Source: Naegleria gruberi | Taxonomy: Eukaryota | DNA length: 64,000 nt | NCBI GenBank assembly: GCA_000004985.1 | Contig: GG738896.1 | Reading direction: 5' to 3' (one strand) | Part shown: piece after piece, positions 27,001-62,533 of the stretch | Position numbering within the stretch: position 1 is the first letter of the stretch | Layout: each line of letters starts with the position of its first letter | Made by a program: the position numbers and the translations under genes | Notes under the pieces: generated by a model | Told to the model about the DNA's origin: nothing | Database searches by the model: none | What the model saw: only the letters and a program-made list of their open reading frames with translations

Positions 27001-29385
27001 CATCAAAATAAAGTGCCTTCTCTGGCTTTTCATAAATTAAAGATAAATCCTCAATTGATAAATATTTCTTCAATAATAGAGTGATATTTTCCATTACAAG
27101 ACCAATGACTCCCATATCTCTGATGATATTTTGTCTAAGTTTAACAGGAATACCACCTCTTGTTAGAGGGTCTGTCTCTTCACTAATAGTACAAAATCTA
27201 ATGCAATTTGCCAATGCACCAATGTAGAGTTTGATATCTGACTTGTCAATGAGCGAGTCGTCCAACTTGGATTTGAAATACCTAATAATTGGCATGTAAC
27301 CAGCTACGGTGAGTGCATCATTCAAATCCTCATGTGAAACAGCTGAAAAATTGAAAACATCCTGTTCAAACATTTTCAAAGATGAAGTTACTCTCTGATA
27401 GGTTGAGTCAGCAAGTGGTCTAGATATGTGTACCCAAGAATTAGTGGCTTCATGCCTCAATCTAAAGTAATCGGTGGTTTGAACTTTCTCACCCTTCTTT
27501 TGTCCTCCAGTCGAGTCGGTGAAATGGAAGACACTGGTTGGTATTGGTTGTGTAATCAAGTCATCAAAGTTTTCAACATGAAGAGTCCACAATGAATCAT
27601 TTTGTGTTACGCTGCCTGATCTATTTCCTCGTGGAGTGGCTACAATTGAACTTTTTCTAGGTGCATTAACTCCAAGTTGGCTCAAGTTATCACCAGATGT
27701 TGGTGTGTTTTCTCGTTCATATCTTTCTTCAATGGCATCATCCGCTTCAATGGTTATTCCTTTAATAGGACGAATCACCATGTATTTTCCACTTGCCAAG
27801 TGTCTTAGACGGAATTTCGAAGTCCACTTTACAGTACCAGAACAGCTAGAGTCTAAAAATTCCAATTGCCACAAAGTTTGAGGACTCACATAGTCAGAAG
27901 ATTTAGATTCCATACCAGCCAAGCTTGTATCCTCAGAGTCGTTGATTTGTAGATTGCTTGATTTCTTGAAAAATTTAATTCTATCCGTTTTTTCATTCAC
28001 TCCAATATATCCTTCCAATTCCTTGTGGTATATTCTCATAATGGTGGATCCTGCTTTGAGTTTTCTATTTGTTTCATCATTTTGTGGTGTGTATTTTTGG
28101 TAGAGTTTCATTCTCCACCTAGTGAATGCAGTACTATTCGCCATGTTAACTTCTCTTCTACTATCGTAGGAATATTTTCCTCTATTTCGTGATAATTTTA
28201 CAGCTTGTTGAGCTAATTCTGTGTATGAAGAATTTTCATTCACTCTTTGATAGGTACCATCATTGTCTTCTCCAGTTGTGTATCTATAATAGGATAAGTG
28301 AATAAATTGGTTGGACTTTTTGTTGTAAAGTCTAATTTGATCAGTGAGTTTAACTTGATCTCCATCCTTTTGAAAACTGGAATATGGCATTATTTGAAAG
28401 TATGAATAGGTAGATCCTTCTTTATCGAGGGCCAATCTCATACAATCCTTTTGCATTTCTGCAGATTCTCTTGCTACTGTCAGATAGCACTGTGTTTGTA
28501 CATGATACAATTGTACTGTTTGTCCATAGACAACTGGTTTTGAAAGGTTTCTTTGTGATTCCATCCTATTTTGTTCAAGTTCTCTTTCAGCTCGTTGTTC
28601 CAATTGTTGATATTCTGTTGAGAAGGAGGCTGTCGAAGGCATTACATTATTCTTGTTATCCTTTGTTTTTTTGTTGGCCTCTTTCAACTCTTGTTCTTCT
28701 TTGAAGGTTTTGAACTTTTTCAGTGCTGAATAACTCTTTGGATGACAAATCTTGAAAACACAATTAGAAAAGTTTGGTGTAAAGAAGGAAGAATCCTTTT
28801 CTGAAATGACAGATTCCACCAGACCACATCTAGCTTGTGGTTTGTTTCTAAAATATTGATGAAATAATAAAAGTAGTATTTAACAGAGAATAAAGAAGGT
28901 GAATAATTAGTTGAATATTTAAACAATATTTACCCTTTAACATTCTCGGAACAAGTCAAATTAATACCATCCACACTCAAGAACCCAATCATTGAATTAC
29001 CAGTACTTTTTGATGACAAATCCGTATAGAAGGAAATTTCCTCTCCAATTCTCAAATAATCTCCCTTCTTTTTCATCATCATATTATTCATCCACAATTG
29101 TTGCTCATCCTCCTTCACATCACTCATCACATCTTCATCCTCATCATACAAATGATGATCAAAGCCTTGTTGTTGCTGTGCAGAAGAGGATGATGATGAC
29201 GAATATTCGGAATGTTGTTCATGATGATGATTTGATGTGGCGCCATTATTTTTAACGGCAGAAGTGGCGCTTACCGATACGATGAGTTGTTCTTGTTGTT
29301 GATGAAATAAGAGTGCATAGTCAAAGAGGTGTTGTGATGATGGTTCGGAAGAGTTGCTATTGTTATGATTATTGGATAGTGTCAT
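21038..29385 (-). CDS. inositol 1,4,5-trisphosphate receptor-like Ca2+ release channel in two exons, about 29385 or 29082..28934 and 28847..21038, with an 86-nt intron
   Basis: Exon 1 (...DYLRIGEEISFYTD..GFLSVDG) plus exon 2 (CGLVESV...CVFKICHPKSYSALKKF) reproduce the IP3R N-terminus (LHIGD..., CLFKLC). Exon 1 ends with gg|gtaaat. The acceptor ttttag at 28848-28849 joins in phase to the 2593-aa ORF, whose track start is GTG. The C-terminus has IP3R hallmarks FLVIVIVLLVNVVFGVILDSF and CFICGLERTKFD plus the conserved tail. The upstream in-frame 100 aa are Gln/Ser-rich. Alternative ATGs lie at 29082-29076. Confidence 0.85.
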
Positions 29386-40465: not shown

Positions 40466-43400
40466 TTAATATCTAATTTCTATGGTACTCGCATCTGGTA
40501 TACTTCTCGCTGTTGATTTAGTTTCTGAAAATCTAGGACTTTGCATGGATGATTTGGTATCTGATCCCTTTGGACTCTGAAGAACCTTCTCAATGTTGGT
40601 TTCTGCTGTACTCTCATCAATACTTTCCAATTGCTTTTCTAGCTCAAATTCAAATTTCATCTCACCAACATCCTTAAAGCTTGTTCTTCTCAAGACCATC
40701 TTATTTCGAACATTATTCATAAATTCTTCAATGTTGATGTGTTGCTCAAAGTCGAGCTCCTCATTAGGCTCAGCATGAACTCCAAATCTCAAGAGCTTAT
40801 CTAGATTGTCCTTACACACTTGTTTGTACTCGAATATTTCCTTAACTCTTTTCAATGGGAGAGCTCCTTCTCTATCCTCCTTCTCACGAAGCCATTCCTC
40901 TACTTCAATATTATATTCCTCTACTTCCCTGATGAACTGTCTCTTGATAGTAGTGAGGAATCGTCCATCAAATCCTTCATTATCTTGTTGGAACAATCTC
41001 TCGTACTTGACCACAGCATCCCTTTGATCCTTGTGCATGTCAATCTTTATCTTTAAAATATCATCTGGAGCCTTTCCCTCAAAGAAGTATTCTAATTGCT
41101 TGTTGGCATTCTTCTTCTGTACAGTACCATCAGCAATACCAGACTCTGTTTCATCCAATTTGACAAACATCTTTCTCAATTGTTCAATCATGGAGAACAA
41201 TTCGAAAAAGACCAACTCGGAGACATCTCCCTTGATGATCTTTGTGAATAAATAACAGTCTGTGTCCCATGTGAAATGTTCAGCTCCAAAAACAATATTA
41301 TAAATCAATTCGGCCTTAATGCTTCCAATGTTACCCACTTTCATTGTTACAAAGCTTTCAAAAAAGTCGGATATAGTGTCCTTATATCTTTCTGGACCTT
41401 CTCTTTGTTTCATTCTGGCCTTCCACATATCATTAACAATACCCATGATATCCTTCTTTTTAAATCTCTTGTTTCTTATTCTTCCTCTGTGTCTTAGGTA
41501 CTTTGGAACAGAAGGTCCAGTACCGAGCCCCATAAAATAATTGTTGTAAACCTTTTCTCGGACAACATCGTCTGATTTGAGGAATTCGAGTGCCTTGGCA
41601 TTCTCCTGAAGTTCTTTTTGTTGCTTCTTGACAAGTATTTGTAATTTTGAAACTCTGTTAGCAAGTTGATTTACATTCTCAATGGTGTTAGAATCTAGTG
41701 GGAGTGATTCAATCCTCAAATCGTCACGGACCAAATCCCATTTTGGTCTAGGGGTTAAACTTCTCGATTGGTCCAGAATTCTCTCCTCCAAAACGGTGAT
41801 ATTCAGTTTGAGCTCGTTGAGTTTTTCATTCAACAGTTTGCTGATTCTCTGTTCTTGGGTAAGTTTAACTTTCGTATTTTTCAATTCTTCCTCTAGAAGG
41901 TCATTCCTCGAGAGGACTTCTTGATAATCCGCCTTTGGTACCATGTTATTTAACTTGTCCAATTCCTGCAGTGACTCGACATACAATTGCTCAATCTTGT
42001 TCTTTTCTTGAGCTACTCCTTGAAGCCCAGAGAGTTGCCTTTTAATTTCAGTCTCCTTAAGATCTCTGTATTGGATGGCATCGTTCAAAATCATACTTCT
42101 CTTAATGTCGTCATTTCTCCTCTTTTCGTACTTTCTAATGTCAACACCTAGTTTTTCAATGGTCTCCAATAAACCAGCTTCCTTTTCTCGCATTGCTAAA
42201 ACCTCCTTTTCTAAATTTGAATTTTGTTGTTTTACCATTTCAATTTCTTTTGAGGTATCTCTGTAAACTTTGTGCATTTTGAGAGATTCCTCCTCCCTTT
42301 TGGTGTGATGTTGATTGAATTTATCATTTGGCATTGTTAACTTTAGTTTCAACTCTTCCACTGCAGTGGAAAATTCTTCCAAAATATGGGTCAAAATAGG
42401 TCCATAAGTTCTCGAATGGTCAATGAATATTCTAAAGCATTCCTTATAGACATTACTCTTTGCTGCAATATATTCGACCTCATTCATTATCACATTCTCC
42501 TTCTTCATTTCTCGGGTGACTAAATGCAATTCCTTTGCAATAAAATTTTCCATGGCCTCTAACAGAGGTGGTTTGAATTTCTTATTCTCGTAAGAGACCA
42601 TTGAACCTAGATTGTATTTGAGACTTTTTAGCCCGTTGTCCTCCTTTGTGGTAGACATGAGCGAATGGACGTACGAGTCCTTTGCTGAAAACCCATTCCA
42701 TGTCTTGAGCATGGGAGAGAGTTTTTTAGAGGATGTTCCAAAACTGCTAGCATTCAATTCTTGCCTTTCAATCCCAAATTCTTCAAATTCAGCTTCTGGT
42801 ATTTCACCAAATAGTATTTTCGACAATTCCGAATCTTCTTTAACACTTTGATAATTTTCCTTAATAAGCCTCTCCTGGAATGCACTTCTCTGAGTCTTTG
42901 TCATGAAATTAGGAGAAGCTCTCTGAGAATTGTCAGCAGAATTTTGGTGTAGCGATTCATTTGGGCTAGAGCACATTTCCTCTCTTCCATAGATGTCCAT
43001 TGTTTTAGCTTGGTGAGGAATTGAATTAACTCCAGGTTTTGGCAACTTTTCACAAGAGTGCCAACTTGGTTTCATCTTCCCTGAAATCGCTCCTGTTCTT
43101 TTTATACCTAGACCTTTCTTATTTAGGACTGAGGTAACTGAATTTTCAAGTACCATCTGAGGCGATTTGACTCTTCTCTCATTAACAATCTGTATCGGTT
43201 TTGAATTATCAACTTCATGATGATCCAACTTGAACCCATTCTTCTTTTTAATGTTAGGTAACTTGGAGGCAGCACCTGTATCGTGATTGAGACTAAAATC
43301 GGAATGTGAATGATGCTTACTACCCTGATGAGTTGCACTCAGTGTAGTAAGGCCACTAGTAGCGACGGTTTTCTTTTTCATCCCAGTTGGTGTTGAACTT

Positions 43401-44104
43401 CTTCCTGTTGATGGTTGACTTGTATTCTTGGGTGTATTCTGTGTTGATGGTGTTACAGACATCCTATCCATTGAAGCATATGGATTGGGAGGTGCAACAA
43501 TTGATAGATTGCCTCTCTTTGGCCCGAGTGAAATGTTCGAGCATGATGAAGTGGGACGAGAACCACTCTCTTCCTCATTGGTATTATTGTTACCCTTATT
43601 TGTGCCTTCTTTGGGTGAAGTCACCATTGTGGAAGAGTTGTTACTGCTGGTGTGGAGGTTGTTCGGTTGTTGTGGGTTGCTTTCTTTTTGTTTGTTGTTA
43701 TCGTTGTTTTCTTCTGAAGTAGATGAGATGGTCGAGAGGTTAACTTCCTCAATTGTACTATTCATATCAAAATTGCTCTTGCTATTTCTTGTTGATGAAT
43801 AATTAGAGTCTTTGATTTCCTCAATAATTTCCTGAGGTTCTTCTTCAATTTCCTCCTCATCATCGTCATCATAGTCTGCATCATGTTGATCCTCTGATTC
43901 TTCGATAGTTTGTTGTAAATGTTGGTGTTCTAATTCATCCTCAGTATCTATATCCTGTTGAGATGAATATTCATCAATAGACATTGTATGATGATGTTGG
44001 TTTGGTTCCTCTCTAATTTCATTAAATCGAGGTGTTTCCTCAATCAATAAACTTCCATCCTCCGCATCCTCATCAATACTTCCAAAATCCTCCTTCAACC
44101 TCAT
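40466..44104 (-). CDS. large coiled-coil protein (1212 aa) with an acidic/Ser-Thr-rich N-terminus and a conserved-looking C-terminal domain, function unknown
   Basis: The ORF is intact. The central heptad-rich region reads (EIEMVKQQNSNLEKEVLAMREKEAGLLETIEKLGVDIRKYEKRRND...). Confidence 0.55.
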   Translation of the reverse strand: MRLKEDFGSIDEDAEDGSLLIEETPRFNEIREEPNQHHHTMSIDEYSSQQDIDTEDELEHQHLQQTIEESEDQHDADYDDDDEEEIEEEPQEIIEEIKDSNYSSTRNSKSNFDMNSTIEEVNLSTISSTSEENNDNNKQKESNPQQPNNLHTSSNNSSTMVTSPKEGTNKGNNNTNEEESGSRPTSSCSNISLGPKRGNLSIVAPPNPYASMDRMSVTPSTQNTPKNTSQPSTGRSSTPTGMKKKTVATSGLTTLSATHQGSKHHSHSDFSLNHDTGAASKLPNIKKKNGFKLDHHEVDNSKPIQIVNERRVKSPQMVLENSVTSVLNKKGLGIKRTGAISGKMKPSWHSCEKLPKPGVNSIPHQAKTMDIYGREEMCSSPNESLHQNSADNSQRASPNFMTKTQRSAFQERLIKENYQSVKEDSELSKILFGEIPEAEFEEFGIERQELNASSFGTSSKKLSPMLKTWNGFSAKDSYVHSLMSTTKEDNGLKSLKYNLGSMVSYENKKFKPPLLEAMENFIAKELHLVTREMKKENVIMNEVEYIAAKSNVYKECFRIFIDHSRTYGPILTHILEEFSTAVEELKLKLTMPNDKFNQHHTKREEESLKMHKVYRDTSKEIEMVKQQNSNLEKEVLAMREKEAGLLETIEKLGVDIRKYEKRRNDDIKRSMILNDAIQYRDLKETEIKRQLSGLQGVAQEKNKIEQLYVESLQELDKLNNMVPKADYQEVLSRNDLLEEELKNTKVKLTQEQRISKLLNEKLNELKLNITVLEERILDQSRSLTPRPKWDLVRDDLRIESLPLDSNTIENVNQLANRVSKLQILVKKQQKELQENAKALEFLKSDDVVREKVYNNYFMGLGTGPSVPKYLRHRGRIRNKRFKKKDIMGIVNDMWKARMKQREGPERYKDTISDFFESFVTMKVGNIGSIKAELIYNIVFGAEHFTWDTDCYLFTKIIKGDVSELVFFELFSMIEQLRKMFVKLDETESGIADGTVQKKNANKQLEYFFEGKAPDDILKIKIDMHKDQRDAVVKYERLFQQDNEGFDGRFLTTIKRQFIREVEEYNIEVEEWLREKEDREGALPLKRVKEIFEYKQVCKDNLDKLLRFGVHAEPNEELDFEQHINIEEFMNNVRNKMVLRRTSFKDVGEMKFEFELEKQLESIDESTAETNIEKVLQSPKGSDTKSSMQSPRFSETKSTARSIPDASTIEIRY

Positions 44105-49533: not shown

Positions 49534-52500
49534 TTATTTACTCTTCTTATTAATTCTTCGAAGGGATTCATCTGAATCAGATGAAGAAGGATAGGTTCTT
49601 TTAGTGTTACTTGTTGTACTGCTGATACTTGAGCTGGAAGAACTGGTAGCCATTGATGGGTTATTCAAATTCATAACAGTTGTGGAGAGTCGAGTCAAGT
49701 ATTCGAAAGTTTCTTTCAAAGCTTGCGCCTTCTTCTTTTCTGCATCATTTGGTGTGGAGACCTTCTGAATGACAAGACAATAAGGACTTCTATCCTTGAC
49801 AGTGTCAAATTTCAAGTATTTTTCTGCAGCTGCTTTAGCACTTAACATGACGTGATTTCTTTGTGCTTCTGCTTTTCTGTATTCGAATTTTGTTTTTACC
49901 TTGTCTCTTAAAAAGAATGCAAGAGAGTTGCAGACGTCACAATTACAGGCAAGAGATACATTCAGTGACCAATCCTGTTCTGATGATTGAGTATTTCCTA
50001 TAGACATTCTCAACATGTTAATGCAATACTGAAGAATGGAATTGAACCCTGGATTTAAAAAGGCATGCTTGCCAAGCTCCTTATCTGTCCACTTGATGAG
50101 AGGAATTAGCAATTCATGAATAGAATTTTCAATCATGCCTGATTTGCCAATGATAATTGAAGTAATTGTGGAAATATCATCTTTGAAATTTGCCCTGTAT
50201 AAAACTCCCAAAACTTTTTGGCATAAATTGAGAGTAATTTGAGAGATTTGCAAGCAATTAATCACACCCTTTCTGAAATATTTAGAAAGATAGAGTAGCT
50301 TGTCATCATTTTTCTGGACAGATACTTCTATAATTTGGAGGGCATGCATGATAGTGCTGGTGTTAATCATCTTGTTGCAAAATTCGACAATCTTCGACTT
50401 GATATTATCCACTCCGAGTAATGAGATGGAGGAAATAACTACAGGCATTATTACAGTAAATATTTGAGGCTGTGCGCGTCTTATTATCAGCTCAAATATT
50501 TGGTTACAGAGACCTATTTGATTTTGTGAGTGTAGGGCTTGTAAAACCTGGATTATCTGCTCAGTGCATGTTTCGATAGCGTTTGTCTGAATAATTTTCA
50601 ATGAAATTCGACCAATCACTTCAGATTCAATTTTCAATTTGCTACAGGTTTCAATGAGGGAAACCAAAAAGTTAATTGACAGAATACCTGTATTAATATT
50701 ATTGGTGATATTATCCAACTTTTCCAAAAACCTGCTCATAAAATCCAATGATAGTTGATCATCAGCAAGTCCTATCAAATAATTAAAAGTTTGATTGGCT
50801 CTCTTTTCTAAATCTTGCGTCTTATAGCAAACATACCCAACAAGACCAGACAAGAACTCGGTCTTTAAATTATCCAATCCAAAGTGATTGAGAATGGTAT
50901 TCCATGTTGGTAAATCAAGAATTGGGATTGGAATGAGGAATTTTTTGAAAAGGTCAATATCACTCAAATTAAGAAGTATTGGAATCAATTCCAAAAGTTT
51001 TCCTTTGAAAAATTGAGATTGTGTTTGTGAAGATGCCAACTCGATACATAAATTTCTTTTTGTTGGATCTATCATGAATTCTTTGTATAGAGTTATAAAT
51101 CCCTCATAGCACGTCTTGGCATCCATGTATTTGAGACTAAGGTAGTGATATTTCTTTGGAATAACAACCAGGCAATTTCTATTGGAGGAGATACTGGCAA
51201 TATCGTATGGAATTGTATCAGATAATTCAATTTTGAACATTTGTGAAACTACCACACCAGTTTTAGGATTAGTCAATCTCTTCACCAGGTAGCTACTTTC
51301 ATCATCGCTGTCATAAATTTCGTCATCATTTACTACCTTTCTAGTGGAGGAGGTTTTTGTTGTTCTCAATGTTGTTCTTTCAAACACTCCCAAATAAATA
51401 TCAAAGAGAGAATACTGATCATTGAAAAGAGTGAAAAAATTATATAATACAAGGTCTTGTCCTTTCAATAAATCAACTCTGCAGTCTGCCTCCTTGACTG
51501 AATCAAGCAAATAGACTGCAAATGGAGACTCTTGTGGAGACCACAGAGCTTCAATCTTTTTCAAATTATCAGCCACTTTAAAAACTGTTTCCAATGATGG
51601 CTTGAATGAAGGCTTTCCATTGTAAATCAAGTTATAAACAAGGTAGAGTTTGTATCCTTCCTCAATTTTATCCTCATTTACTTGACACTCAGTAAAGTAT
51701 GTAATATAGGATGGAAGATAAAATGATTGTTCCACTAAATCGTACTCTAATTGTTCATCTCTGTGAGAGAATTTGACTTTTCCTCCTGCGTAGCTGCAAG
51801 GTAATTGAACAATGAATTGAGCAAAAACATTGGAAGGAAGCTTGTTTTTCTTTGGTATATTTTCCCCTTCTTTGAAAAGTACTAGCTGATGGAGTTGGAA
51901 TGAAACCTCCTTTTCAGGGCTGACTCCCAAATTACCTCTAGTGCAACTATTAACTAGTTCAGATACCATTTCATTCCATTTTGGATTGGTAATGACAAAT
52001 TGATCAGCATTCAAATAATATTCATTAGAATGTTTGGCAGCTCTTTTGGCAAGTTTGATAATTTCTCTAGCCTGTTCTGGATTAGCGAGAGGGAATGTCA
52101 CATGTTTTAGTGTTGGTTCCTGCTCGGGATCTTGATTAGGAATAATTAATTTGAGACCAGGCAGACCTGCTCTGGTAAGCAGTGGTCCTCCACAACAAAA
52201 TGATCCAGTACAAATATCCTTTGTTATCATTCTGAATGCTGTTGCAATTCTCTTGACACTAAGGGAGGGTTTAAAGCGACCAGATGATGTGGAAACAGCA
52301 TCTTGCTCCTCTAGTTCTTCATCATTTTCCTCTTCCGAAGATGTGGAAGAGTATTCGTCTTCCTCTTCGTCGTCATCTTCATCCTCATCATCTAGTTGTT
52401 CATCGTCATCTTCTGGAATTTCCTCCTCGTTTTCACTCTCCTCAATTACTAATTGTGATGGTAAAGATGAAGGTACAACCCTCACCTTTTCAACCATAAC

Positions 52501-54036
52501 TTCATCTTCCGAATCCGAATCTATAGTGATTGCTTCTTCTAAGGTATTTGATAATCCTCGTTCCTGTTTGACCTTATATTGTGAGAGAGCAGAATCACCC
52601 AAAGTATTATTAATTTCCTGAGTGATGATACTCGCATTCTTACTTGTGACACTACTGCTGACACTGCTCGTAGGAATAGTCGATGATGGTTGTTCAAGTG
52701 TTGCTGGAATCGATCTTTCCTCTTCGGAAGTGAGGAGCACCTTCTCAGGAGAAGATTGTGTTGGTGAAGGTGGCAATGTCAATGATGGATCAATTGTAAG
52801 AGATGGTTGAAGTGACTCCATGGTTGGTTGAGTTACAAGTGATACTGGTTGAATTGACTCTATACTGTTGTGACTACCCGCTAACTTAATATTGGATAGA
52901 TTTGAAGATGATAATTCACTTGTTCCCATAGAAAAGTCAAAATCTTCCATATTTAAATCATCACTTTCCTCCTGAATAATGTCTTTAGCTTGTGTTGTTG
53001 ATTCAGTACTTGCTATTACTTGTGGTTGTTGAAGGAGAGTATTGTTATTACTACTTGTATTTACATTGGTCGTCTCGTTAATAACTTCCTGTTGTTGTTC
53101 GTCCAAATCAATATCTTCATCATCGTCTTGCATCTTATTGTCCATCTCGTCCATATTTACACTAATACTACTATTGTTACTTGTTAATCCTGGTTCAACT
53201 TTCACTCGTATCAGGGATGCATGTTGTGGTGCTTCTAAATCATCATCGAAACAAACACTTTCATCATCTGAATTAACAACAATTGCTTCGTCAAAGTTAA
53301 CTTCTTCTTCTTCATCAGATGTTATTGCTGGTATTGTTGGTGGTGCTTGTTGATTATTGAATGGTTGTTGTACTTCCTGGACTTCATCAAAATTGATTTC
53401 TTCATCCGAAGCCTCTTCATCAAGCACTTGTGATGCTTCATAGTAATTTTCCTCCTTCTTTACTCGAATTATTTGTTGTTGTTGAACATTATTATTAGTA
53501 TTGCTGCTAGTATTATTAAAGTCTATTTCCTCATCAAAGGTTTGACTATTTCCTCCCAAATCAGCGTCATCATCTAGGTTCATATCATCCGAAATTTCCT
53601 CCTCTTCATGATGAAGACTTGCTGAGGAAGAGTGAAGAGTAACGTTGCTATTCATGATGGAAGAACCGATTGTGAAAGGCTGTGGTCGAATGTAAGATGT
53701 TGATGATGAAGATGAAGAGGACGGATTATTGTTATTATTATTGATAGTATTATTAGTATTGAAGGGTTTTATTGTGTTATTATTGTTGTTGTTGTTGGAG
53801 TGTTGCTGTTGGTGAGTATTGTTGGAGTTGTTGGGCAACATTTTTTTTCTTAGTTTTTCAATCTTGGTCACGAAATTGTAAATTGAACTATTTAGTCTTG
53901 TTACAAAAATATTGAAATATTTTGTTGTCATAAAAATATCAAAATATGTGAATGATTTCAATTCATAAGAATTCACAGTAGGAAAATTTGAAATGAAAGA
54001 AAGATTACAACAATAGTTTCCAACCAATCGGAACAT
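49534..54036 (-). CDS. large (1500 aa) acidic/Asn-rich nuclear-type low-complexity protein with a structured C-terminal half, function unknown
   Basis: The ORF is intact. It has a poly-N start, a long acidic stretch (DDDEQLDDEDEDDDEEEDE) and about 900 aa of non-repetitive C-terminal sequence. Confidence 0.55.
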   Translation of the reverse strand: MFRLVGNYCCNLSFISNFPTVNSYELKSFTYFDIFMTTKYFNIFVTRLNSSIYNFVTKIEKLRKKMLPNNSNNTHQQQHSNNNNNNNTIKPFNTNNTINNNNNNPSSSSSSSTSYIRPQPFTIGSSIMNSNVTLHSSSASLHHEEEEISDDMNLDDDADLGGNSQTFDEEIDFNNTSSNTNNNVQQQQIIRVKKEENYYEASQVLDEEASDEEINFDEVQEVQQPFNNQQAPPTIPAITSDEEEEVNFDEAIVVNSDDESVCFDDDLEAPQHASLIRVKVEPGLTSNNSSISVNMDEMDNKMQDDDEDIDLDEQQQEVINETTNVNTSSNNNTLLQQPQVIASTESTTQAKDIIQEESDDLNMEDFDFSMGTSELSSSNLSNIKLAGSHNSIESIQPVSLVTQPTMESLQPSLTIDPSLTLPPSPTQSSPEKVLLTSEEERSIPATLEQPSSTIPTSSVSSSVTSKNASIITQEINNTLGDSALSQYKVKQERGLSNTLEEAITIDSDSEDEVMVEKVRVVPSSLPSQLVIEESENEEEIPEDDDEQLDDEDEDDDEEEDEYSSTSSEEENDEELEEQDAVSTSSGRFKPSLSVKRIATAFRMITKDICTGSFCCGGPLLTRAGLPGLKLIIPNQDPEQEPTLKHVTFPLANPEQAREIIKLAKRAAKHSNEYYLNADQFVITNPKWNEMVSELVNSCTRGNLGVSPEKEVSFQLHQLVLFKEGENIPKKNKLPSNVFAQFIVQLPCSYAGGKVKFSHRDEQLEYDLVEQSFYLPSYITYFTECQVNEDKIEEGYKLYLVYNLIYNGKPSFKPSLETVFKVADNLKKIEALWSPQESPFAVYLLDSVKEADCRVDLLKGQDLVLYNFFTLFNDQYSLFDIYLGVFERTTLRTTKTSSTRKVVNDDEIYDSDDESSYLVKRLTNPKTGVVVSQMFKIELSDTIPYDIASISSNRNCLVVIPKKYHYLSLKYMDAKTCYEGFITLYKEFMIDPTKRNLCIELASSQTQSQFFKGKLLELIPILLNLSDIDLFKKFLIPIPILDLPTWNTILNHFGLDNLKTEFLSGLVGYVCYKTQDLEKRANQTFNYLIGLADDQLSLDFMSRFLEKLDNITNNINTGILSINFLVSLIETCSKLKIESEVIGRISLKIIQTNAIETCTEQIIQVLQALHSQNQIGLCNQIFELIIRRAQPQIFTVIMPVVISSISLLGVDNIKSKIVEFCNKMINTSTIMHALQIIEVSVQKNDDKLLYLSKYFRKGVINCLQISQITLNLCQKVLGVLYRANFKDDISTITSIIIGKSGMIENSIHELLIPLIKWTDKELGKHAFLNPGFNSILQYCINMLRMSIGNTQSSEQDWSLNVSLACNCDVCNSLAFFLRDKVKTKFEYRKAEAQRNHVMLSAKAAAEKYLKFDTVKDRSPYCLVIQKVSTPNDAEKKKAQALKETFEYLTRLSTTVMNLNNPSMATSSSSSSISSTTSNTKRTYPSSSDSDESLRRINKKSK

Positions 54037-54252: not shown

Positions 54253-56677
54253 ATGTCAATTCAAATATCAAGAGTCGGTTTGATGAACTCACTCTTGTTG
54301 ATTTGTATTCTTCTTGCAACATTGATGGTGAGTGGTATTGATACTACTGCTGCTGTTACTACTAGAACCAAATCAGCAGTGCCAACAATTCCCGCCAAAT
54401 ACTTTAAAAAATTACAAGGACCACCATCAGAGTTTTCTCTTCACGCTTATCCAAAGCCTTCCGAAGGAGCTATTCAATCAGACTTTTATTTATATGTAGA
54501 GAAGTTTAAAAAGAGTGAGAGCTTGAAGGCCTCGACAACACATCAATATGAATGGAGTGCTCGTGTTGCTGTTGATAGTTCTGAACAAGTGGATTTATCC
54601 TTACTCTCACAATATGTCAAGAGTATGCGTGTTCAAGTTTTGGATCAACATGGTACTGACATTACTTCAATGGCTAGTTTTGTTGTTGATGAGGAAAGTT
54701 TTGGAGCCTTCTCAGATGGTGAAAATAACTTGTTACCTTCAAAAACTTTGAGATTTGATGCCAACTCAATTCGTCGTTTGAAAATCAATCAAAAGAGCAA
54801 GCAAACTAGTATTGGAAGTAATTATATTGATGAATGGATTGTAAATGTTTTTGTTGATGCACCTGCTTCAGCTCCAACCTATTATGACGATGAAGCATTG
54901 CACTTGTTGGTCTATAATCAATCTCCACTTCGTGCCTATACTCAATTACAATCATATGACAATCAATTGGTTGGTGAAAATGTCATTATTGAAACTTTCA
55001 TGTATGATGAAGATGTAACTCCAGTTAAGGCAATCAATGATATTCCAAGACCAATTCGTGTCTTTGCCACTGCCACTGATGAAACAATTTTGAGTGCTCA
55101 AATGGAAATCTTGTCACCAAGTGGTCAAGAAACCTCTATCAACATGCTTGATAATGGTCTTTTGGGTGATCGTATGGAAAATGATGGAATTTACTCTGCT
55201 GCTCTCAATGCTCAAGAAGCTGGTGACTATGTTATCACTGTCTCAGTCAAGGGTGTTATCAAGGGTAATGCCGTAAAGAATATCTCACGTCTCATTAATC
55301 AAGATCTCGTTGAATTTGAAAGAAGTACACACCATGTTGTTTCAATTGTTAAAAAGTCACTCGAGTTGACTCAAAATGCTGTTTTCTCATTCAATGCTCC
55401 TTCTGTTAAAACTGCTCAAATTGCTGATGTCACCTCACAAATGGTCGACGTCAAGTTGGTTGCCAAGCCATTAGATGCTGACGCTTTAGGTAAAAAGTTC
55501 AAGGCCTATGCTGAAGTTTACTCTGCCGGTGATGCTAAATCAAGTGTTCCAATTGCTTTTGTTTCAGGTATGGCCATTGCTGAAAAGTGTGACGGTACTG
55601 AATGCCCAGAAGGACTTATCTACTTGCCACTCCAAATGAGTTTGGCTTGGGTTGCTTTGGCTAGACAACAATCTAATGGAGTTATTTCTGCTCCATTCAT
55701 TTTGAAGAATGTCAATATTCAAGATGTTGCCACCTCTAATATTATTACCAAAGCTGATCAAACTCTTCCTGAATTGACTAGTTGTCATATCAAGTTACCA
55801 GAACATACCTTGTACAATGCTAGACCAGTTGATATTAACTACTTTTTAAACACTCATGAAGGTATGGAAAAGTTTGATGGTGTCATTACTGAATCAATGT
55901 TGTTTGGTCCAAGACCAACTGAAATTGCCACTAAGAGCCTTACCTCTTCAACACAACACAAGGTCTTGCTTATCCATGGTTATTGTTCTGGTTATGCTCC
56001 ATTCCCAAGCTCTGATTTCACCAATGCTGTCTATTTCAGTGATCATAATGCCAACAGAAACAATGATGAATTTGCCAGTATGATTTTCGAACTTGGTCAA
56101 ACCTTTGATTCATTCTCAATGGTTGGTCACTCACAAGGTGGTCTTGCTTCATTGCACTTATTTGCTTATTATTGGACTCATGCTGACGTTGCTGCTGCCT
56201 CAAAGAAGACTTTGGCTGGTGAAACTAGAAGAATTATCCAATCTGTTGGTTCTCCATACAGAGGATCTGGTTTGGCTGGTGTTTTGGCTAGTATTGGTAA
56301 AGTTGTTGGAATTGGATGTGGTAAACAAACTGATTTGACCTATGATGGCGCCAGTAAGTGGCTCAGTTCTATTCCAGTTGCTGCTCGTCAAGCTCTCTAT
56401 TACTCTTACACTCAATATAAGGATTGGTCTTGGTGTTCATTGCCAGCTAATGTAAGTATTTTATTTTTTAAAACTCAATTTACCAACTATGTCAATTCTA
56501 AAGGCTGTTTTGAAATTACCAAACGATGGAACCTGTGAAAAGAGTAGAGCTTCTGTTGATGGTGCAAATCACTATGACAGCAAGAAGGGATGGTGTCACA
56601 CCAACAAGATGAAATACAAAGGTCAATGTGAAGACTCTGAAAGAAATGCCGTTCTTAACAAGTATGCCCAGTTGTAA
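54253..56677 (+). CDS. secreted alpha/beta-hydrolase (lipase/esterase-like, GHSQG nucleophile elbow) with a beta-rich N-terminal domain of about 500 aa, in two exons, about 54253..56451 and 56504..56677
   Basis: The signal peptide is MSIQISRVGLMNSLLLICILLATLMVSG. The hydrolase segment reads IHGYCSGY...MVGHSQGGLASLH. The 52-nt intron is gtaagt...ctaaag and joins in phase to ORF 56489, which is in frame 2. Confidence 0.65.
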
Positions 56678-56879: not shown

Positions 56880-57372
56880 AGTTTGAATTATTTCGCTTAA
56901 TGTACCGAACTCGCAAGATCACCTCCAAAATGGTGTGTGAAAAGGTCTTTAGTGCAAATAGAAACCAAACTGGACCATTGCCCAAGGTGAATGTCGTTAA
57001 TGTTACATTGGCTTGCATGTGTTTCGGTGAAGGTGAATTCAATCAATTTCCATACTATATAGTATTACACTATAACCATTGAAGAATCCAAGAATTTGAT
57101 GGTTTGGGCTCTGAAGAATTCCGGCCAAAACTTTACAACCAAAGTACTTGATGCACCTTATATTTTGGTTTCTGAACATTTTCAAACAGAGCTGTTATAA
57201 AGAATCTATGGAACTCTTCAAGACTTATCCAGATGGGGCCTTTGGTATCCGGTTCTTGGTAGTTTTATTCAAACTTTCTACTCCGTTCCACTTTGGTCTT
57301 TCAAAAGTCAATATTTCACTCAAACAAATTGCCAGCTTCTTGTCAGGTGTGAGTTACACGAGTGTTAATTAA
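56880..57372 (+). pseudogene. decayed partial duplicate of the extracellular sensor-domain region of the downstream cyclase gene (about 58240..58750), with frameshifts and stops
   Basis: Three frames carry colinear similarity to the parent. VNVVNVTLACMCFGEGEFN matches parent YNITLANLCYGEGGLN. MVWALKNSGQNFTTKVLD matches FVWAKKNPGENFLTWILD. ELFKTYPDGAFG...GLSKVNISLKQIASFLSGV matches SLFQNYPQGAFG...LGISKVNISLTLIGKFLASV. The spacing matches the parent gene. Confidence 0.6.
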
Positions 57373-57906: not shown

Positions 57907-60318
57907 ATGACTAGACGAATCGTTCCAGAAAATGCAGAATCCAGTTGGAAAGCAAGTCAAAAAGAAGAAGTTGAAGAGGAGGAACAATTGTTGGTCGCTG
58001 AGAAGAAGGAAAAGAGGCCTCTGATTCTTGGGATTTTACTTTCGGTTAGATTATTCTTGATTATTGTCATTATGAGTGTTGTATTATTGACGGCCTTGTC
58101 AATTTGGATAACTTCATACAAAGTCAATCAGGATCAAGCAATGGAAGCAGTTAATGTATTGATTTCGAATATTAGAGAAAAGGTTTCGAATTTCTTGAAT
58201 AGTCAATTGGTACCTGCCAAGCAAGTAGCTCAGCAAATGGCCTATGATTACCATAATAAGTATGTCAAAATAGATGACAGTGCCTTGCCATATGTCTTTT
58301 CAAAAATGAGAGTTTATAACATTACACTTGCTAACTTATGTTATGGTGAAGGTGGTTTAAATGCAATGCAAGCAGTTACAGTGGACGAAACTAAGGGATC
58401 TTTCGTTTGGGCAAAGAAGAATCCTGGAGAAAATTTCCTTACATGGATTTTAGATTCAGATACTGGAGCAGTTGTAAAATCGTATGGATTGATTCTTCCT
58501 GCCTATCCAGTTGGTAAAATGGACTATTATGTTGAATCGTTGAGTTTATTCCAAAATTATCCTCAAGGTGCTTTTGGAAATGTCTATCAAGTGATTAACA
58601 GTTCAATGCAGACATTCTTCTCTGTTCCAATTTATAACACAACGAATACTACATCAAAGCAAAGACTTGGTATTTCAAAAGTCAACATTTCACTAACCTT
58701 AATAGGAAAATTCCTGGCAAGTGTTGAAGTTTTGACACGTGGGTTTGTCATTGTTTCAGAATTCAACACAGATTATGTAATTGGTTCCTCCCTTGACATT
58801 CCAGAACTTTTACTCCAAAGAATTCACTCGGTCAACATTTCCCAGCACAATGCAGGAGAAATTATGAGAAAGTTTCATGAACTTTCGGGTAAAGTTGAAA
58901 CCTTCCAAACTACTCTAACCATTGGACAAACCACTTATCTTATCAGTTCTAGTGCGTATGTGTTTGAGAATATTAAATGGAGAATGACACTTGTCTTTGA
59001 GGAGAGTGAAATTATGGAAGGTATCATTGTAAGCAGTTACATCATTTTGGGAGTTACAGTTGGTGTTTGTTTATTAGGTATTTTGATAAGTGTTTTGATT
59101 GGAAATGTGGTGACGAATCCTTTCGTCCAACTCGAAAAGGATTTTAAAAAGATTGAAATGCTTGATTTGGCAAATATTAAGCCAAGATCGTCACTCTTCT
59201 CAGAAGCTGCAAATATTTATGCATGTTTAACTGCAACTGTTCAGTGGTTGAAAGATTTTAAATCTTTTCTTCCTGATTCAGTTTTGAATCAATTATCAGA
59301 TTCGAATAATGATACTTGTGATAAGGATAAGGATCCTCCTGGTGATTCATCATTAAGAGAAAGTGCAAGTGCCATTAATTTATCCAATCGCAAATCTGAA
59401 ACTCAATCAAGAATCAGTTCCCATCATGACAAGAAGAGAGACATGTTTAAATTGGGATTATCAGTCAAGGAATGTTGTGTTGTTAATGTCAGAATTAATA
59501 ACATGAATGAGAAATATTTCTCAGATCCTGATGTACTTTCACAAACAATTTCTAAGGTTTTAACTGGAATTTCAACAATTTGTAAAACAGTTCGAGCTGA
59601 TTTACAAATTAAGAGTTATGATGAATTTTTGGTGATTTTTGCTGATCGACCACAAGTTTCAAATATTGGATTGGAAACTGCATTGAAGATTGTTGCTGGA
59701 ATTGGTCATTTGAATGATAATTTGACAAGAAATGGTCATGGAAAGTTGATCAATTCCATTGGCATTGCCTCTGGAAATTCACTGCAAGGAAATGTTGGAA
59801 ACAAACAAACAAGATACTTTGCTCTTGTTGGCACAGTGATTGAAAGGGCAAAAGATTTGTGTTTCATGAGCTCACAATTCGAAACTCCAGTCTTGACTGA
59901 TCAAATCACTTTCAAACATGGTAAACAATTTGTTTTCAGACCAGTGGATAGAGTTAAAGATAAGGATGGAAATCTCTTCACTGTTCATGAATTGGTAAAG
60001 AAGAATTTGGTTGAGAATGATGAGTGGCTCTACGAATTGGAACAAAAGAGGCAAAACTCCAAGCACAACGATTATACTCTAAGTGTGGAGAAGCTCTTTC
60101 AAGCAAGAGAGAATGATTCAATTATTCCTACAGAAGAACTCAATTCAATTCGTGAATGTTTACTCTCCTATCAAGATGAATGTCCTACTGATAAGGTGGT
60201 AAAGAGAATGGCCAACCTCTCCACCCAAACAAATGATTTCTCCAATTATCATTCAAATGTTGCAAAGATTATAAGAAGCTATTTAAATGTTGATAGACCT
60301 GTACATATTAATGAATAA
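57907..60318 (+). CDS. receptor-type class III nucleotidyl cyclase homolog with ACG-like topology (TM, extracellular sensor domain of about 300 aa, TM, cyclase homology domain)
   Basis: The N-terminal TM is LILGILLSVRLFLIIVIMSVVLLTALSIWI. The second TM is IIVSSYIILGVTVGVCLLGILISVLIG. The cyclase-domain signature reads IKSYDEFLVIFAD ... IGIASGNSLQGNVGNKQTRYFALVGTVIERA. Several catalytic positions look substituted by eye. Confidence 0.7.
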   Translation: MTRRIVPENAESSWKASQKEEVEEEEQLLVAEKKEKRPLILGILLSVRLFLIIVIMSVVLLTALSIWITSYKVNQDQAMEAVNVLISNIREKVSNFLNSQLVPAKQVAQQMAYDYHNKYVKIDDSALPYVFSKMRVYNITLANLCYGEGGLNAMQAVTVDETKGSFVWAKKNPGENFLTWILDSDTGAVVKSYGLILPAYPVGKMDYYVESLSLFQNYPQGAFGNVYQVINSSMQTFFSVPIYNTTNTTSKQRLGISKVNISLTLIGKFLASVEVLTRGFVIVSEFNTDYVIGSSLDIPELLLQRIHSVNISQHNAGEIMRKFHELSGKVETFQTTLTIGQTTYLISSSAYVFENIKWRMTLVFEESEIMEGIIVSSYIILGVTVGVCLLGILISVLIGNVVTNPFVQLEKDFKKIEMLDLANIKPRSSLFSEAANIYACLTATVQWLKDFKSFLPDSVLNQLSDSNNDTCDKDKDPPGDSSLRESASAINLSNRKSETQSRISSHHDKKRDMFKLGLSVKECCVVNVRINNMNEKYFSDPDVLSQTISKVLTGISTICKTVRADLQIKSYDEFLVIFADRPQVSNIGLETALKIVAGIGHLNDNLTRNGHGKLINSIGIASGNSLQGNVGNKQTRYFALVGTVIERAKDLCFMSSQFETPVLTDQITFKHGKQFVFRPVDRVKDKDGNLFTVHELVKKNLVENDEWLYELEQKRQNSKHNDYTLSVEKLFQARENDSIIPTEELNSIRECLLSYQDECPTDKVVKRMANLSTQTNDFSNYHSNVAKIIRSYLNVDRPVHINE

Positions 60319-60334
60319 AAAATTTTACTTCTCC

Positions 60335-62533
60335 CTAAATTGTAAAGAAGAATCGCCTACACATTATATTAAATTCTTCTCCCCACTCATTATGATCATA
60401 TAAATCCAATTCTATATTGATTTCTCTCGAAATTAACAAATCGTTCATTCCACTAAATATTAATCCAATTTCACTCTTACATCTGGCCATATAAAAGAAT
60501 GAGCTTGCGAGTTGTTCTTTAATGTTTTCTCCCATATCATCCGAGTCGTATCTTGTATAGATAAAATCAATATAATACTTGAAATCCAAAATGGCAAGCT
60601 CATATTTTTTCAAGTCCAGTAAAGACATGGCTCTATTTCTATACGTGTCACTGATGTCATCAGAAAATTGAATATTATTACCAAAACGATCTATACAATT
60701 AGTATACCATAGTACAGCATTTAGATGATCCTCAGCAGCAGAGTAGGCAAATCCGAGATTGTGTGAATAGTTTTGCTGAGTTTCATCCAACAAGTCTGCA
60801 TTGTAAAAATCATTAATGGCCTCTTGATACTTTTCCAGAGAAATAAATGTAAATCCTCTATTATTGATAATAAAGGCATGTTGTTGTTTGAGCACCTTAT
60901 AGTCACGTATTCTTGCTAGCTCTTCTGTATTTTTAGCTCTTCGAGTTAGCTTCTTCAAGTCCTCAAATTTCTTGTATTCAGGAAGAATGTACTTGTCCAG
61001 TAATTTCTGATAGGTTTCTGCCGAATCGTTCAACCTTCCCATTAGCTTTAACTGTAGAGCCTTATTGTTGTAAAGAGTAATCAAGCTACCATCCTCGTGG
61101 CAGTCATTGTTACAAATACTGGAAAATCTATTGTAAAGGCATTCTCTGTAAAATCTCTCTGACAACCACTCAGGACCTTCAAACTCTGGTTTTGTAATTC
61201 TTTCGTGAAATTCTATTGCGTAATCAATCAGTTTTACTCTGGCACTATACTTTAACTGATCACGTAGGTAAATGGAGTATAAAATTGAATTCTTATAATT
61301 TGGAAAGATCTTGACACTAATTTTGAGGCAAGTCTTTGCTAATTTGAAATAATAGGCCCGCTCAGATTCCATCATAGCAAAGCATCCATACGACCAAAAT
61401 ATACTCCCACTCAAAGACAGCATTGTCTCAATCAACATGTGAGATGGAAGCATTAAATAATCCACACAATTACAATCCGTCTGTTTTACCTTTTCGAATC
61501 CTTTCGTAACAATACTGTAATTTTCCTCTCCTCCAAACCTGAGTAGATGTGACTTGTACAAGTTAAAGCACTCCTTGATATCTTTACGAGCCAATTCATA
61601 AATTAATTTCCCGGAAATTCTAGCACTAATACTCTTTGTATTGTCCAATTCATCATCATCACCAAATACCAGACTCTCAAACCTCTGAACAGAGTAGGTA
61701 GTCGAGTTGTTACCAAGAGTAAAGACCAAATCGCACAAGTATAAAGCTCTCTTTTCCAAGGCCTGTATCTTTTTCACTGCCACAAAAGTCTTGTCCTCGT
61801 ATTGCTCATCTAAATGTTGAAGCACGTAGGTAATGTCGCTCACTGCCGATAGACACAACCTCATGTCAGAATTCATAGTATCTTTACAGGCTGTCTTGTA
61901 GAAGGCATTTGCTCTATTCCAATAACACATGACATCTCCACAACAACATTTATGAACATCAAAATCCTCTTCGTTAAATGAAATTCCAAATCTTTGATCC
62001 AAATAATCAATATATCTCATCATTTCCACACAATCACATTCCTTTGTATCGTCTGCCACATTCTCATATCCATACAATTCATCTTTCAAATAATTGTACT
62101 CCTTTTCCAAATCCACAAATTGTTGCAAAAATCTCTCCTTCACTCTATCGCACACTTCAATAAATGCTTGTTCGAATTTTCTCTTGGTATTCTCCGAAGA
62201 GACAGGAAGTTTCTCCTTTGAATTTATCAACTTTTCAATCTTACTCAAGTAGGCAGAAGGTTCATAGCTAGTTTCTTGTTGATCATTCTTCTCTTCACCA
62301 CCAAAAACATCAAAATCATCTTCCGACTCCTTTACAAGTTGAGTGAGAAGAGTTGGATTCCATGGAGGAAAAGTCTCCTTCTTCTTTTTCAAGGCATTAT
62401 AATCTTCTGTTGTTATTGTTGTCGTGGTAGTTGAAGAAACTGTTGTTTCAGCTGTTGTACTATTAAAATCCTCTTCATTAGAATTGATACTAGTTGCCGA
62501 TAAATCTTCTTCACTATTATTATTATTAATCAT
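60335..62533 (-). CDS. TPR-like repeat protein (732 aa), function unknown
   Basis: The ORF is intact. TPR-like helical pairs are visible, for example YRNRAMSLLDLKKYELAILDFKYYID and NNRGFTFISLEKYQEAINDFYNA. The N-terminus is acidic and Thr-rich. Confidence 0.5.
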   Translation of the reverse strand: MINNNNSEEDLSATSINSNEEDFNSTTAETTVSSTTTTTITTEDYNALKKKKETFPPWNPTLLTQLVKESEDDFDVFGGEEKNDQQETSYEPSAYLSKIEKLINSKEKLPVSSENTKRKFEQAFIEVCDRVKERFLQQFVDLEKEYNYLKDELYGYENVADDTKECDCVEMMRYIDYLDQRFGISFNEEDFDVHKCCCGDVMCYWNRANAFYKTACKDTMNSDMRLCLSAVSDITYVLQHLDEQYEDKTFVAVKKIQALEKRALYLCDLVFTLGNNSTTYSVQRFESLVFGDDDELDNTKSISARISGKLIYELARKDIKECFNLYKSHLLRFGGEENYSIVTKGFEKVKQTDCNCVDYLMLPSHMLIETMLSLSGSIFWSYGCFAMMESERAYYFKLAKTCLKISVKIFPNYKNSILYSIYLRDQLKYSARVKLIDYAIEFHERITKPEFEGPEWLSERFYRECLYNRFSSICNNDCHEDGSLITLYNNKALQLKLMGRLNDSAETYQKLLDKYILPEYKKFEDLKKLTRRAKNTEELARIRDYKVLKQQHAFIINNRGFTFISLEKYQEAINDFYNADLLDETQQNYSHNLGFAYSAAEDHLNAVLWYTNCIDRFGNNIQFSDDISDTYRNRAMSLLDLKKYELAILDFKYYIDFIYTRYDSDDMGENIKEQLASSFFYMARCKSEIGLIFSGMNDLLISREINIELDLYDHNEWGEEFNIMCRRFFFTI

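Follow-up and report, generated by a model that had tools for sequence, protein, structure and literature searches.

A receptor of Naegleria gruberi with a degenerate class IIIb cyclase domain, member of a family of putative pseudo-cyclases

We analysed a 64,000-nucleotide stretch of Naegleria gruberi DNA (the window; NCBI GenBank assembly GCA_000004985.1, contig GG738896.1), which carries at positions 57907–60318 a gene for a membrane receptor with a class III cyclase homology domain (CHD) in its C-terminal half. Profile alignments, a structure model and comparison with about 140 relatives lead us to propose, with a probability of roughly 0.72, that this gene encodes a pseudo-cyclase receptor: a folded type IIIb CHD has been kept, the protein would no longer be an enzyme and its output would be non-enzymatic. 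Taken as a step of its own, the loss of catalysis is very probable, judging by the residues present. The gene and its parts, numbered on the window and on the encoded protein in amino acids (aa), are as follows.

57907–60318, plus strand: putative receptor pseudo-cyclase gene, a complete single-exon open reading frame (ORF) of 803 aa and a stop codon.
57907–58017, plus strand: N-terminal cytoplasmic tail, acidic and then basic (aa 1–37), disordered, with a predicted local distance difference test score (pLDDT) below 50 for aa 1–34.
58018–58116, plus strand: transmembrane helix 1 (TM1, aa 38–70), with hydropathy above 1.6 in segments starting at aa 36–55, helical in the model.
58117–59019, plus strand: extracellular dCache-like (double PDC) sensor (aa 71–371), from Foldseek, the family profile and a model pLDDT of 88–98.
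59020–59112, plus strand: transmembrane helix 2 (TM2, aa 372–402), from hydropathy and a continuous model helix at aa 366–417.
59113–59307, plus strand: HAMP-like helix-connector-helix (with P405 and E433) and FLPDSVLNQL helix (aa 403–467), from conservation and predicted helices.
59308–59442, plus strand: disordered Ser/Asp/Lys-rich linker of 45 aa (aa 468–512), with pLDDT below 50 at aa 465–511 and 4–19% identity to relatives.
59443–60003, plus strand: degenerate class III (IIIb-like) CHD (aa 513–699), from profile alignment, Foldseek and a pLDDT mostly above 90.
60004–60315, plus strand: helical C-terminal extension (aa 700–803), with helices predicted at 707–731, 742–758, 763–774 and 785–793 (pLDDT 86–94).
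60019–60039, plus strand: family signature D705-E706-W707-L-Y709-E710-L711, which opens the C-terminal extension.

The C-terminal domain is clearly a class III CHD at the family level. The single sequence does not reveal it: neither the whole window protein nor the isolated domain matches PF00211 (Guanylate_cyc; gathering score 21.9 bits) at E ≤ 10, and phmmer with the single window sequence against the PDB found no cyclase. The PF00211 alignment proposed in a preliminary description of this gene, made by eye from the letters alone, could thus not be obtained from one sequence, and a family profile was needed. Among close relatives, 10 of 13 match PF00211 at E ≤ 1 (best 6.6e-8), as do 16 of 53 wider relatives at E ≤ 1e-3. 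With the close-family profile (A1), only the latter half of the CHD could be aligned with solved cyclases, so that the first catalytic Asp could not be placed. A profile built exclusively from degenerate sequences (130 relatives without catalytic residues, three canonical sequences having been removed; E-values for a PDB-sized search space) aligned the whole domain with CyaB (PDB 3r5g) at an E-value of 2e-22, and reached Cya2 at 8e-17 and CyaC at 1.5e-12. With a 53-sequence profile (A3), solved class III cyclases are matched at E-values down to 2.4e-28, the best matches being of type IIIb (CyaB, Cya2, CyaC and PACs, 1e-28 to 1e-17), as against 2e-13 for the IIIa enzyme Rv1625c. Superimposition of the model by Foldseek gives a TM-score of 0.81 and an r.m.s. 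deviation of 2.6 Å over 197 columns for CyaB (3r5g), and TM-scores of 0.79, 0.78 and 0.75 for CyaC, Cya2 and Rv1625c, respectively. The IGIASG...GNVG core, which had been recognised by eye, is indeed kept in the profile alignment. A GGDEF identity, which the S-Y-D-E-F string of the β2–β3 hairpin could suggest, was considered and rejected: every profile and fold match is a class III cyclase, and the cyclase-specific GNxG/RYF/xxG region also speaks against it.

Each active site of a class III cyclase is built at the dimer interface: one subunit contributes both Asp residues, and its partner contributes the Lys, the specificity residue, the Asn and the Arg. To map these six positions, all sequences were aligned to one degenerate-family hidden Markov model (HMM), with CyaB, CyaC, Cya2, P0074, P0159 and P0161 as references. 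The references read D, K (E in Cya2, N in P0161), D, T (G in Cya2), N and R, and the window protein R529, I568, D572, A639, E646 and D650, that is, one canonical residue out of six. The first metal-binding Asp, on β1 (F-x-D-I-x-G-F-T), is replaced by R529, as the preliminary description had proposed. The substrate Lys/Glu position, four residues before the second Asp, is occupied by I568, with K569 one residue out of register; the second metal-binding Asp (G-D in the β2–β3 hairpin) is kept as D572 and is N or C in the orthologues of N. lovaniensis and N. fowleri. The earlier statement that both this Lys and this Asp are retained therefore holds for the Asp and not for the Lys. The second specificity residue (Thr in the CyaB/CyaC-type IIIb enzymes, Asp in IIIa) is A639, and the transition-state Asn and Arg of the V-N-x-A-x-R helix are E646 and D650; their loss had been correctly noticed, in a register that was off by one and had placed Ile and Lys there. 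In addition, the β4 Arg of CyaB and CyaC is S617, the phosphate-binding loop G-F-T reads N-M-N, and two of the replacements are charge reversals (Asp to R529 and Arg to D650). With five of the six residues lost and D572 alone remaining, no complete site would be formed, whether the protein pairs with itself or with a canonical cyclase. The full-domain profile alignment and the confident model thus uphold the initial view that the canonical residues are gone and that a homodimer would be dead.

On sequence grounds, this loss defines a large and old family rather than being peculiar to the window gene. An exhaustive HMMER search with the close-family profile against 1.84 billion cluster representatives returned 86 representatives at E ≤ 1e-30; at thresholds of 1e-10 and 1e-3 the numbers rise to 780 and 8762. 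The best 150 mostly have the cytoplasmic unit in common (profile positions ~375–775) and differ in their N-terminal parts; a follow-up search with a 150-sequence profile gave 15 matches, hardly any of them new, four being canonical cyclases used as references. Residues were counted over the ~140 non-canonical representatives that cover the CHD. Position 529 is R in 31, K in 30, T in 17, N in 11 and another residue in the others, so that a basic residue is found in 61 of 140 and the canonical Asp in 3 of 140. A Lys or Glu occupies position 568 in 3 of 135 members and an Asp position 572 in 46 of 136; position 639 shows T (39), S (31) and A (27), and the canonical Asn 646 and Arg 650 are present in 15 and 7 of 140 members, respectively. 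Overall, 123 of the 128 relatives scored at all six positions carry 0–2 canonical residues. Even close orthologues vary (R/T/H at 529, D/N/C at 572 and E/N/K/A/Y at 646), and the Shannon entropy at the six positions equals or exceeds the CHD median; constraint on the six positions is therefore lacking, which speaks against a replacement set of catalytic residues.

The CHD fold itself is evidently under purifying selection, as testified by comparison of the window protein with six full-length relatives (orthologues and paralogues): the identity amounts to 44–58% for the CHD, 36–54% for the ectodomain and 4–19% for the linker. The positions that are constrained in the degenerate family yet unlike the canonical sequences are few, namely L518, R/K636, D665 and P679; R636 is R or K in 139 of 140 members, and R678 is R in 127. 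Complementation of the C1/C2 type among paralogues was considered and rejected: no relative joins Asn and Arg with Lys and Thr, and the first Asp is present in only 3 of 140. A few sequences, such as P0124 (D-G-D-A-N-E) and P0126 (beginning with D), keep the first metal Asp alongside a DEW-type motif and may, from their residues, be intermediates between live and dead forms.

The window protein falls within the family as defined by three features: 0–2 canonical residues out of six (here R-I-D-A-E-D), an insert of at least 48 aa reaching from the FLP helix to the KLG pre-strand (here 60) and the motif that follows it (here DEWLYEL). N. gruberi has at least five paralogues (the window gene, P0006, P0029, P0042 and P0140) and N. 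lovaniensis at least nine members. Others are found in N. fowleri, Willaertia magna, Percolomonas cosmopolitus, the euglenid Entosiphon sulcatum, the diplonemid Artemidia motanka and many eukaryotic metagenome contigs. The annotation of family members does not go beyond 'predicted protein' or 'Guanylate cyclase domain-containing protein'. The presence of members in Heterolobosea, euglenids and diplonemids places the origin of the family at or before the divergence of Heterolobosea and Euglenozoa, and the common insert and motif, from which alone it is argued, suggest a single origin. Canonical relatives with a homologous ectodomain also exist (the metagenomic P0074 and P0069, and P0087 from Willaertia); they have sites of the DKDTNR type, a connection of 19 aa and no DEW motif. 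Some members (P0055, P0084 and others, 8 of the 53 scanned) carry a long N-terminal ankyrin-repeat region ahead of the first membrane segment and the dCache region, and so join an intracellular ankyrin module, an extracellular sensor and a dead cyclase unit.

The insert separates the transducer helix from the CHD. The distance from P456 to G517 is 60 residues in the window protein and 48–99 residues (median 66) in 129 degenerate relatives, as compared with 19 residues between the Y-V-P-x-x-V-V helix and the Gly of the pre-β1 'PGV/KLGG' segment in the canonical relatives P0074 and P0069. The inserted residues are of low complexity, unconserved, predicted to be disordered and rich in Ser and Thr (18–29%). 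An intron artefact was considered and rejected: the insert is also present in transcript-derived sequences (Trinity, MMETSP) of Percolomonas, Entosiphon and Artemidia, and therefore does not consist of retained introns.

On the other side of the CHD, the string D-E-W-[ML]-Y-E-L sits immediately behind the last strand of the domain. It is the best-conserved string of the cytoplasmic unit, two glycines excepted: W707 is found in 136 of 138 relatives, E706 in 120 of 138, D705 in 111 of 141, Y709 in 114 of 138 and E710 in 112 of 135. It is followed by a TPR-like tail (Y..AF..LF...P.D..V..RL) that is common to the canonical relatives. In the three canonical relatives the P-x-D helical tail is present and the DEW motif absent. 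Neither the disordered linker nor the DEWxYEL extension had been noticed in the preliminary description.

The whole protein was modelled with AlphaFold2 on the 53-sequence alignment (A3), with a mean pLDDT of 84. In the model, the disordered N-terminus (aa 1–34) is followed by TM1, which continues as a 70-residue stalk helix, by two α/β modules (aa ~126–365) and by TM2, which runs into the helix-connector-helix up to aa 452; a short helix (457–467) and a disordered stretch (465–511, pLDDT below 50) then lead to the C-terminal half, made up of a compact α/β domain (516–699, pLDDT mostly above 90) and four helices within 707–793. Hydropathy likewise gives two membrane segments, aa 38–70 and 372–402, with ~300 aa between them, in agreement with the layout first read from the sequence, namely a transmembrane helix, an extracellular domain of about 300 aa, a second transmembrane helix and a single cyclase domain. 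The N-terminal tail (aa 1–37) shows 20–33% identity with the orthologues, and its KKEKR stretch ahead of TM1 would fit a topology with the N-terminus inside.

Between the two transmembrane helices, the long N-terminal stalk helix and the two tandem PAS-like α/β modules form the dCache layout, and Foldseek matches the ectodomain model to the dCache chemoreceptors 6d8v (TMt 0.59) and 9a65_B. The window protein alone has no Pfam match in its ectodomain, and the close-family profile A1 found no dCache domain in the PDB. The 53-sequence profile A3 matches the solved dCache sensors 3c8c, 5ave, PctA/B/C and 3lib at E-values down to 1.9e-10. Relatives aligned along the entire ectodomain match PF02743 (dCache_1) at E-values of 1e-7 to 1e-9, below the gathering score, and dCache_1 is matched in 9 of 53 relatives at E ≤ 1e-3. 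Together, these results indicate that the ectodomain is a diverged dCache-type sensor. The amino-acid sensors of the dCache_1 type carry a ligand motif of the R-x-W-Y type; the stretch K-M-D-Y-Y-V-E-S, picked out by eye and containing the conserved D206, Y208, E210 and S211, does not look like this motif.

The segment right behind TM2 is the best-conserved part of the protein, with 65–71% identity to the six full-length relatives. It is about 50 aa long, with a Pro opening its first helix and a Glu opening the second, and P405, E433 and P456 show little or no variation across the family; the helices predicted around it span residues 366–417, 432–452 and 457–467. The last of these, the FLPDSVLNQL helix, is the counterpart of the YVPxxVV transducer motif of the canonical relatives P0074 and P0069. 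PF00672 (HAMP) is matched neither by the window protein nor among the family matches listed for the relatives, and a 33-sequence profile of the segment found no HAMP domain in the PDB (best E-value 0.12, spurious). The only domains matched by this profile, Sin3 PAH domains, were discarded as spurious, the common feature being an F-x-x-FLP string.

From the homology and fold of the CHD, its residue losses, the purifying selection on the fold and the family with its signature, we infer that the output of the receptor is non-enzymatic. Class III cyclases are described as unable to do without their metal-binding Asp residues (PMC4886424), the first of which is lost here. Several points weigh against this reading. 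The Asn is dispensable in some class III cyclases, Rv1900c having a His in its place (PMC4886424), and given this tolerance missing single residues are not proof of inactivity; D572 is kept, and two Lys residues, K569 and K686, are close to canonical Lys positions; the segment behind TM2 is called HAMP-like from its position, length, predicted shape and hallmark Pro and Glu, without profile support; and the output by docking or linker phosphorylation proposed below is conjectural. That the gene is decaying, an annotation artefact or a chance resemblance to cyclases might be thought from the empty single-sequence Pfam and PDB searches and from a decayed paralogue fragment just upstream; this explanation is effectively refuted by the intact 803-codon frame, the orthologues in two other Naegleria species, the domain-specific conservation, the confident model and the profile E-value of 2e-22.

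Three other explanations were weighed. The protein could be a regulatory partner, forming heterodimers with the canonical dCache-HAMP cyclases of the same organism and acting as a ligand-dependent dominant-negative or modulator of cAMP output; this role would fall under the non-enzymatic reading, as one form of it, and would not contradict it. Canonical relatives sharing the ectodomain do exist in Heterolobosea (Willaertia P0087; metagenomic P0074 and P0069), the transmembrane and HAMP-like segments are the best conserved, and by the geometry of class III dimers the pairing of a dead with a live subunit destroys both sites; however, the disordered insert (48–99 aa between P456 and G517) parts the CHD from the coiled coil that would position it, and the DEWxYEL motif, without counterpart in canonical relatives, suggests a function of its own, so that we regard this role as unlikely. 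An active enzyme of non-canonical chemistry, making a cyclic or other nucleotide product with, for example, the basic residue 529 replacing a metal, is a good deal less probable still. The conserved fold, GNxG arm and basic residues (R636, R or K in 139 of 140; R678 in 127), the R or K at position 529 in 61 of 140 and the D572 of the window protein would agree with it, but conservation is lacking at each of the six positions, close orthologues included, with entropies at or above the domain median. Moreover, R678 also occurs in canonical relatives, and these have an Arg at the position preceding 636, so that a new catalytic role is not evident for either residue, and the change of the G-F-T loop to N-M-N and the charge reversals at R529 and D650 are equally unfavourable. 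Least probable of the three, and by a small measure only, is an intracellular ligand sensor, in which the degenerate CHD would bind a nucleotide or second messenger without turnover and signal inside-out to the ectodomain, as LapD does. The architecture is analogous to that of LapD and the fold is strongly conserved despite the lost catalysis; yet the canonical base- and phosphate-contacting positions are unconserved, and the disordered linker counters mechanical coupling back to the HAMP-like segment.

For the pseudo-cyclase receptor, the following mechanism can be envisaged. The protein would be a dimeric cell-surface receptor with two transmembrane helices and its N-terminus inside, whose dCache-like ectodomain senses a small ligand. 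The HAMP-like module would relay the signal through the membrane, and the strong conservation of the transmembrane and HAMP-like segments suggests that transmission inward persists. By interrupting the rigid connection of the transducer helix to the CHD, the disordered insert would free the CHD from the coiled-coil positioning that a regulated catalytic dimer needs. The invariant DEWxYEL, located at the fold's edge, would form a new interaction surface. Ligand-dependent changes of the dimer could then alter protein binding by the pseudo-cyclase/DEWxYEL module; the Ser/Thr-rich linker is also a plausible target of phosphorylation, perhaps altered by the ligand. Such an output could be compared to those of receptor pseudokinases or of degenerate GGDEF/EAL receptors. 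A broader proposal, which we hold as tentative and somewhat doubtful, is that the HAMP-like segment, linker, dead cyclase fold and DEWxYEL together make up a previously unrecognised non-enzymatic output module at least as old as the Heterolobosea–Euglenozoa split. Many receptors in a genome would employ this module, C-terminal to dCache, ankyrin-containing or other regions, and it would signal via ligand-controlled docking of partners at the DEWxYEL/CHD surface.

The ORF at 57907–60318 on the plus strand is uninterrupted over its 803 codons and can be aligned end to end with its orthologues; the start codon is backed by their common N-terminus, M-x-x-K-[IV]-x-P, and the sequence carrying the ORF has a G+C content of ~35%. 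The closest relatives are proteins of N. lovaniensis (51% identity) and N. fowleri (48%), both labelled 'Guanylate cyclase domain-containing protein'. Residues 1–671 are 100% identical to the N. gruberi 'predicted protein' P0001. This public model has 693 aa, diverges from the ORF past aa 671 and re-enters in another frame at nucleotide 60048, which implies a 127-nucleotide intron at 59921–60047 inside the receptor ORF; the implied intron deletes FVFRPVDR...TVHEL...DEWLYEL together with the entire C-terminal extension. Because the uninterrupted ORF matches all orthologues up to aa ~800, the 3' end of the published model is probably wrong.

Upstream of the receptor gene, the following feature was detected.

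56981–57354, plus strand: frameshifted and decayed copy of part of the ectodomain (corresponding to aa ~130–271; tblastn E-value 1e-8, family HMM E-value 2.9e-10).

This copy lies ~550 bp upstream of the receptor start codon, and its fragments are spread across all three plus-strand frames when the family HMM is compared with three-frame translations; it is apparently a remnant left by partial tandem duplication. Downstream, a convergent neighbour (60335–62533, minus strand) encodes a 732-aa protein with C-terminal TPR repeats, its stop codon lying 16 nucleotides from that of the receptor. The plus-strand ORF at 54253–56538 (761 aa) has an N-terminal hydrophobic, signal-like segment and a C-terminal G-H-S-Q-G-G string that resembles the nucleophile elbow of α/β-hydrolases, without a Pfam match at E ≤ 1e-3. 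Elsewhere in the window, the minus-strand ORF at 16149–17312 (387 aa) combines an F-box (aa 101–141) with a Ras/Roc-type small GTPase domain (aa 201–367), an unusual fusion. Three very long ORFs also lie on the minus strand, at 21038–28819 (2593 aa), 49534–54036 (1500 aa, without Pfam match) and 40466–44104 (1212 aa, with only a weak TSNAXIP1_N match).

Naegleria has often been singled out for its exceptionally many adenylate/guanylate cyclases, of which the 2010 genome paper reportedly counted 108. Such numbers have been taken as a sign of very rich cyclic-nucleotide signalling, and a more recent pangenome study gives at least 81 (PMC9928731). Our results indicate that part of this 'cyclase' repertoire is a conserved family unable to make cyclic nucleotides by the known mechanism, and that enzyme counts are overstated accordingly; if the output-module proposal is true, a substantial share of the 81–108 Naegleria 'cyclases' would not produce cAMP or cGMP. 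Pseudoenzymes themselves are common; this family would be a class IIIb receptor-cyclase scaffold turned pseudo-enzyme with a signature of its own, and its ~140 diverged sequences, with the cyclase fold and without the chemistry, offer a large natural data set for pseudoenzyme research. The DEWxYEL string, as the single new invariant motif, points to the site of the new function. The catalytic hexad, the insert and the DEW motif together provide a simple signature to tell live from dead cyclases in the annotation of Discoba genomes, including that of the pathogen N. fowleri.

An architecture TM-Cache1-TM-HAMP-nucleotidylcyclase III has been reported as an expanded subfamily of Euglena, Naegleria and kinetoplastids (Ebenezer et al. 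2019, PMC6366073). The window gene most likely falls within it, having the same architecture and coming from the same organisms; in the portion of that paper available to us, the subfamily is treated as nucleotidylcyclases, with no mention of catalytic degeneracy, of the linker insert or of the DEW motif. Similarly, Naegleria has been noted to possess a Cache-containing 'bacterial-type adenylate cyclase' (PMC4822843), and the available passages of that source do not mention the loss of catalytic residues. A literature search for pseudo-cyclases or degenerate cyclase domains in protists, with most subscription papers outside its coverage, returned nothing relevant, and the family is apparently undescribed so far.

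Compared with known systems, the closest are the bacterial-type IIIb receptor cyclases, composed of dCache or CHASE2, sometimes HAMP, and a CHD (CyaB, 3r5g; Cya2, 2w01; CyaC, 1wc1), together with their canonical eukaryotic relatives, which have the same architecture and CHD fold. They share with the window protein the KLG pre-strand, the GNxG arm, R678, the YEL domain end, the YVP/FLP transducer helix and the P-x-D tail; the window protein differs in having lost five of the six catalytic positions and gained the disordered insert ahead of the CHD and the DEWxYEL motif. Single CHDs lacking part of the hexad are also known from the C1/C2 domains of mammalian adenylate cyclases and from the α and β subunits of soluble guanylate cyclase. 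In these asymmetric class III dimers the two halves are complementary (D,D versus K,D,N,R), whereas the window protein is without both sets and none of the ~140 relatives is a complementary paralogue. The Dictyostelium osmosensing cyclase ACG, to which the preliminary description had likened the receptor, has a CHASE ectodomain, as opposed to the dCache-like ectodomain of the window protein. The likeness holds for the topology, two transmembrane helices flanking an extracellular domain and then a single CHD, and fails for the domain type, the CHD of ACG being an active one of type IIIa (PMC2535757) and that of the window protein a degenerate one closest to the IIIb enzymes CyaB, Cya2, CyaC and PACs. 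ACG also lacks the DEW extension. In LapD, a periplasmic domain and a transmembrane segment are followed by HAMP and by degenerate GGDEF-EAL domains. By analogy, LapD and the receptor pseudokinases, which belong to different fold families and are not homologous to the window protein, are likewise receptors in which a once-catalytic domain is kept folded, conserved and non-catalytic.

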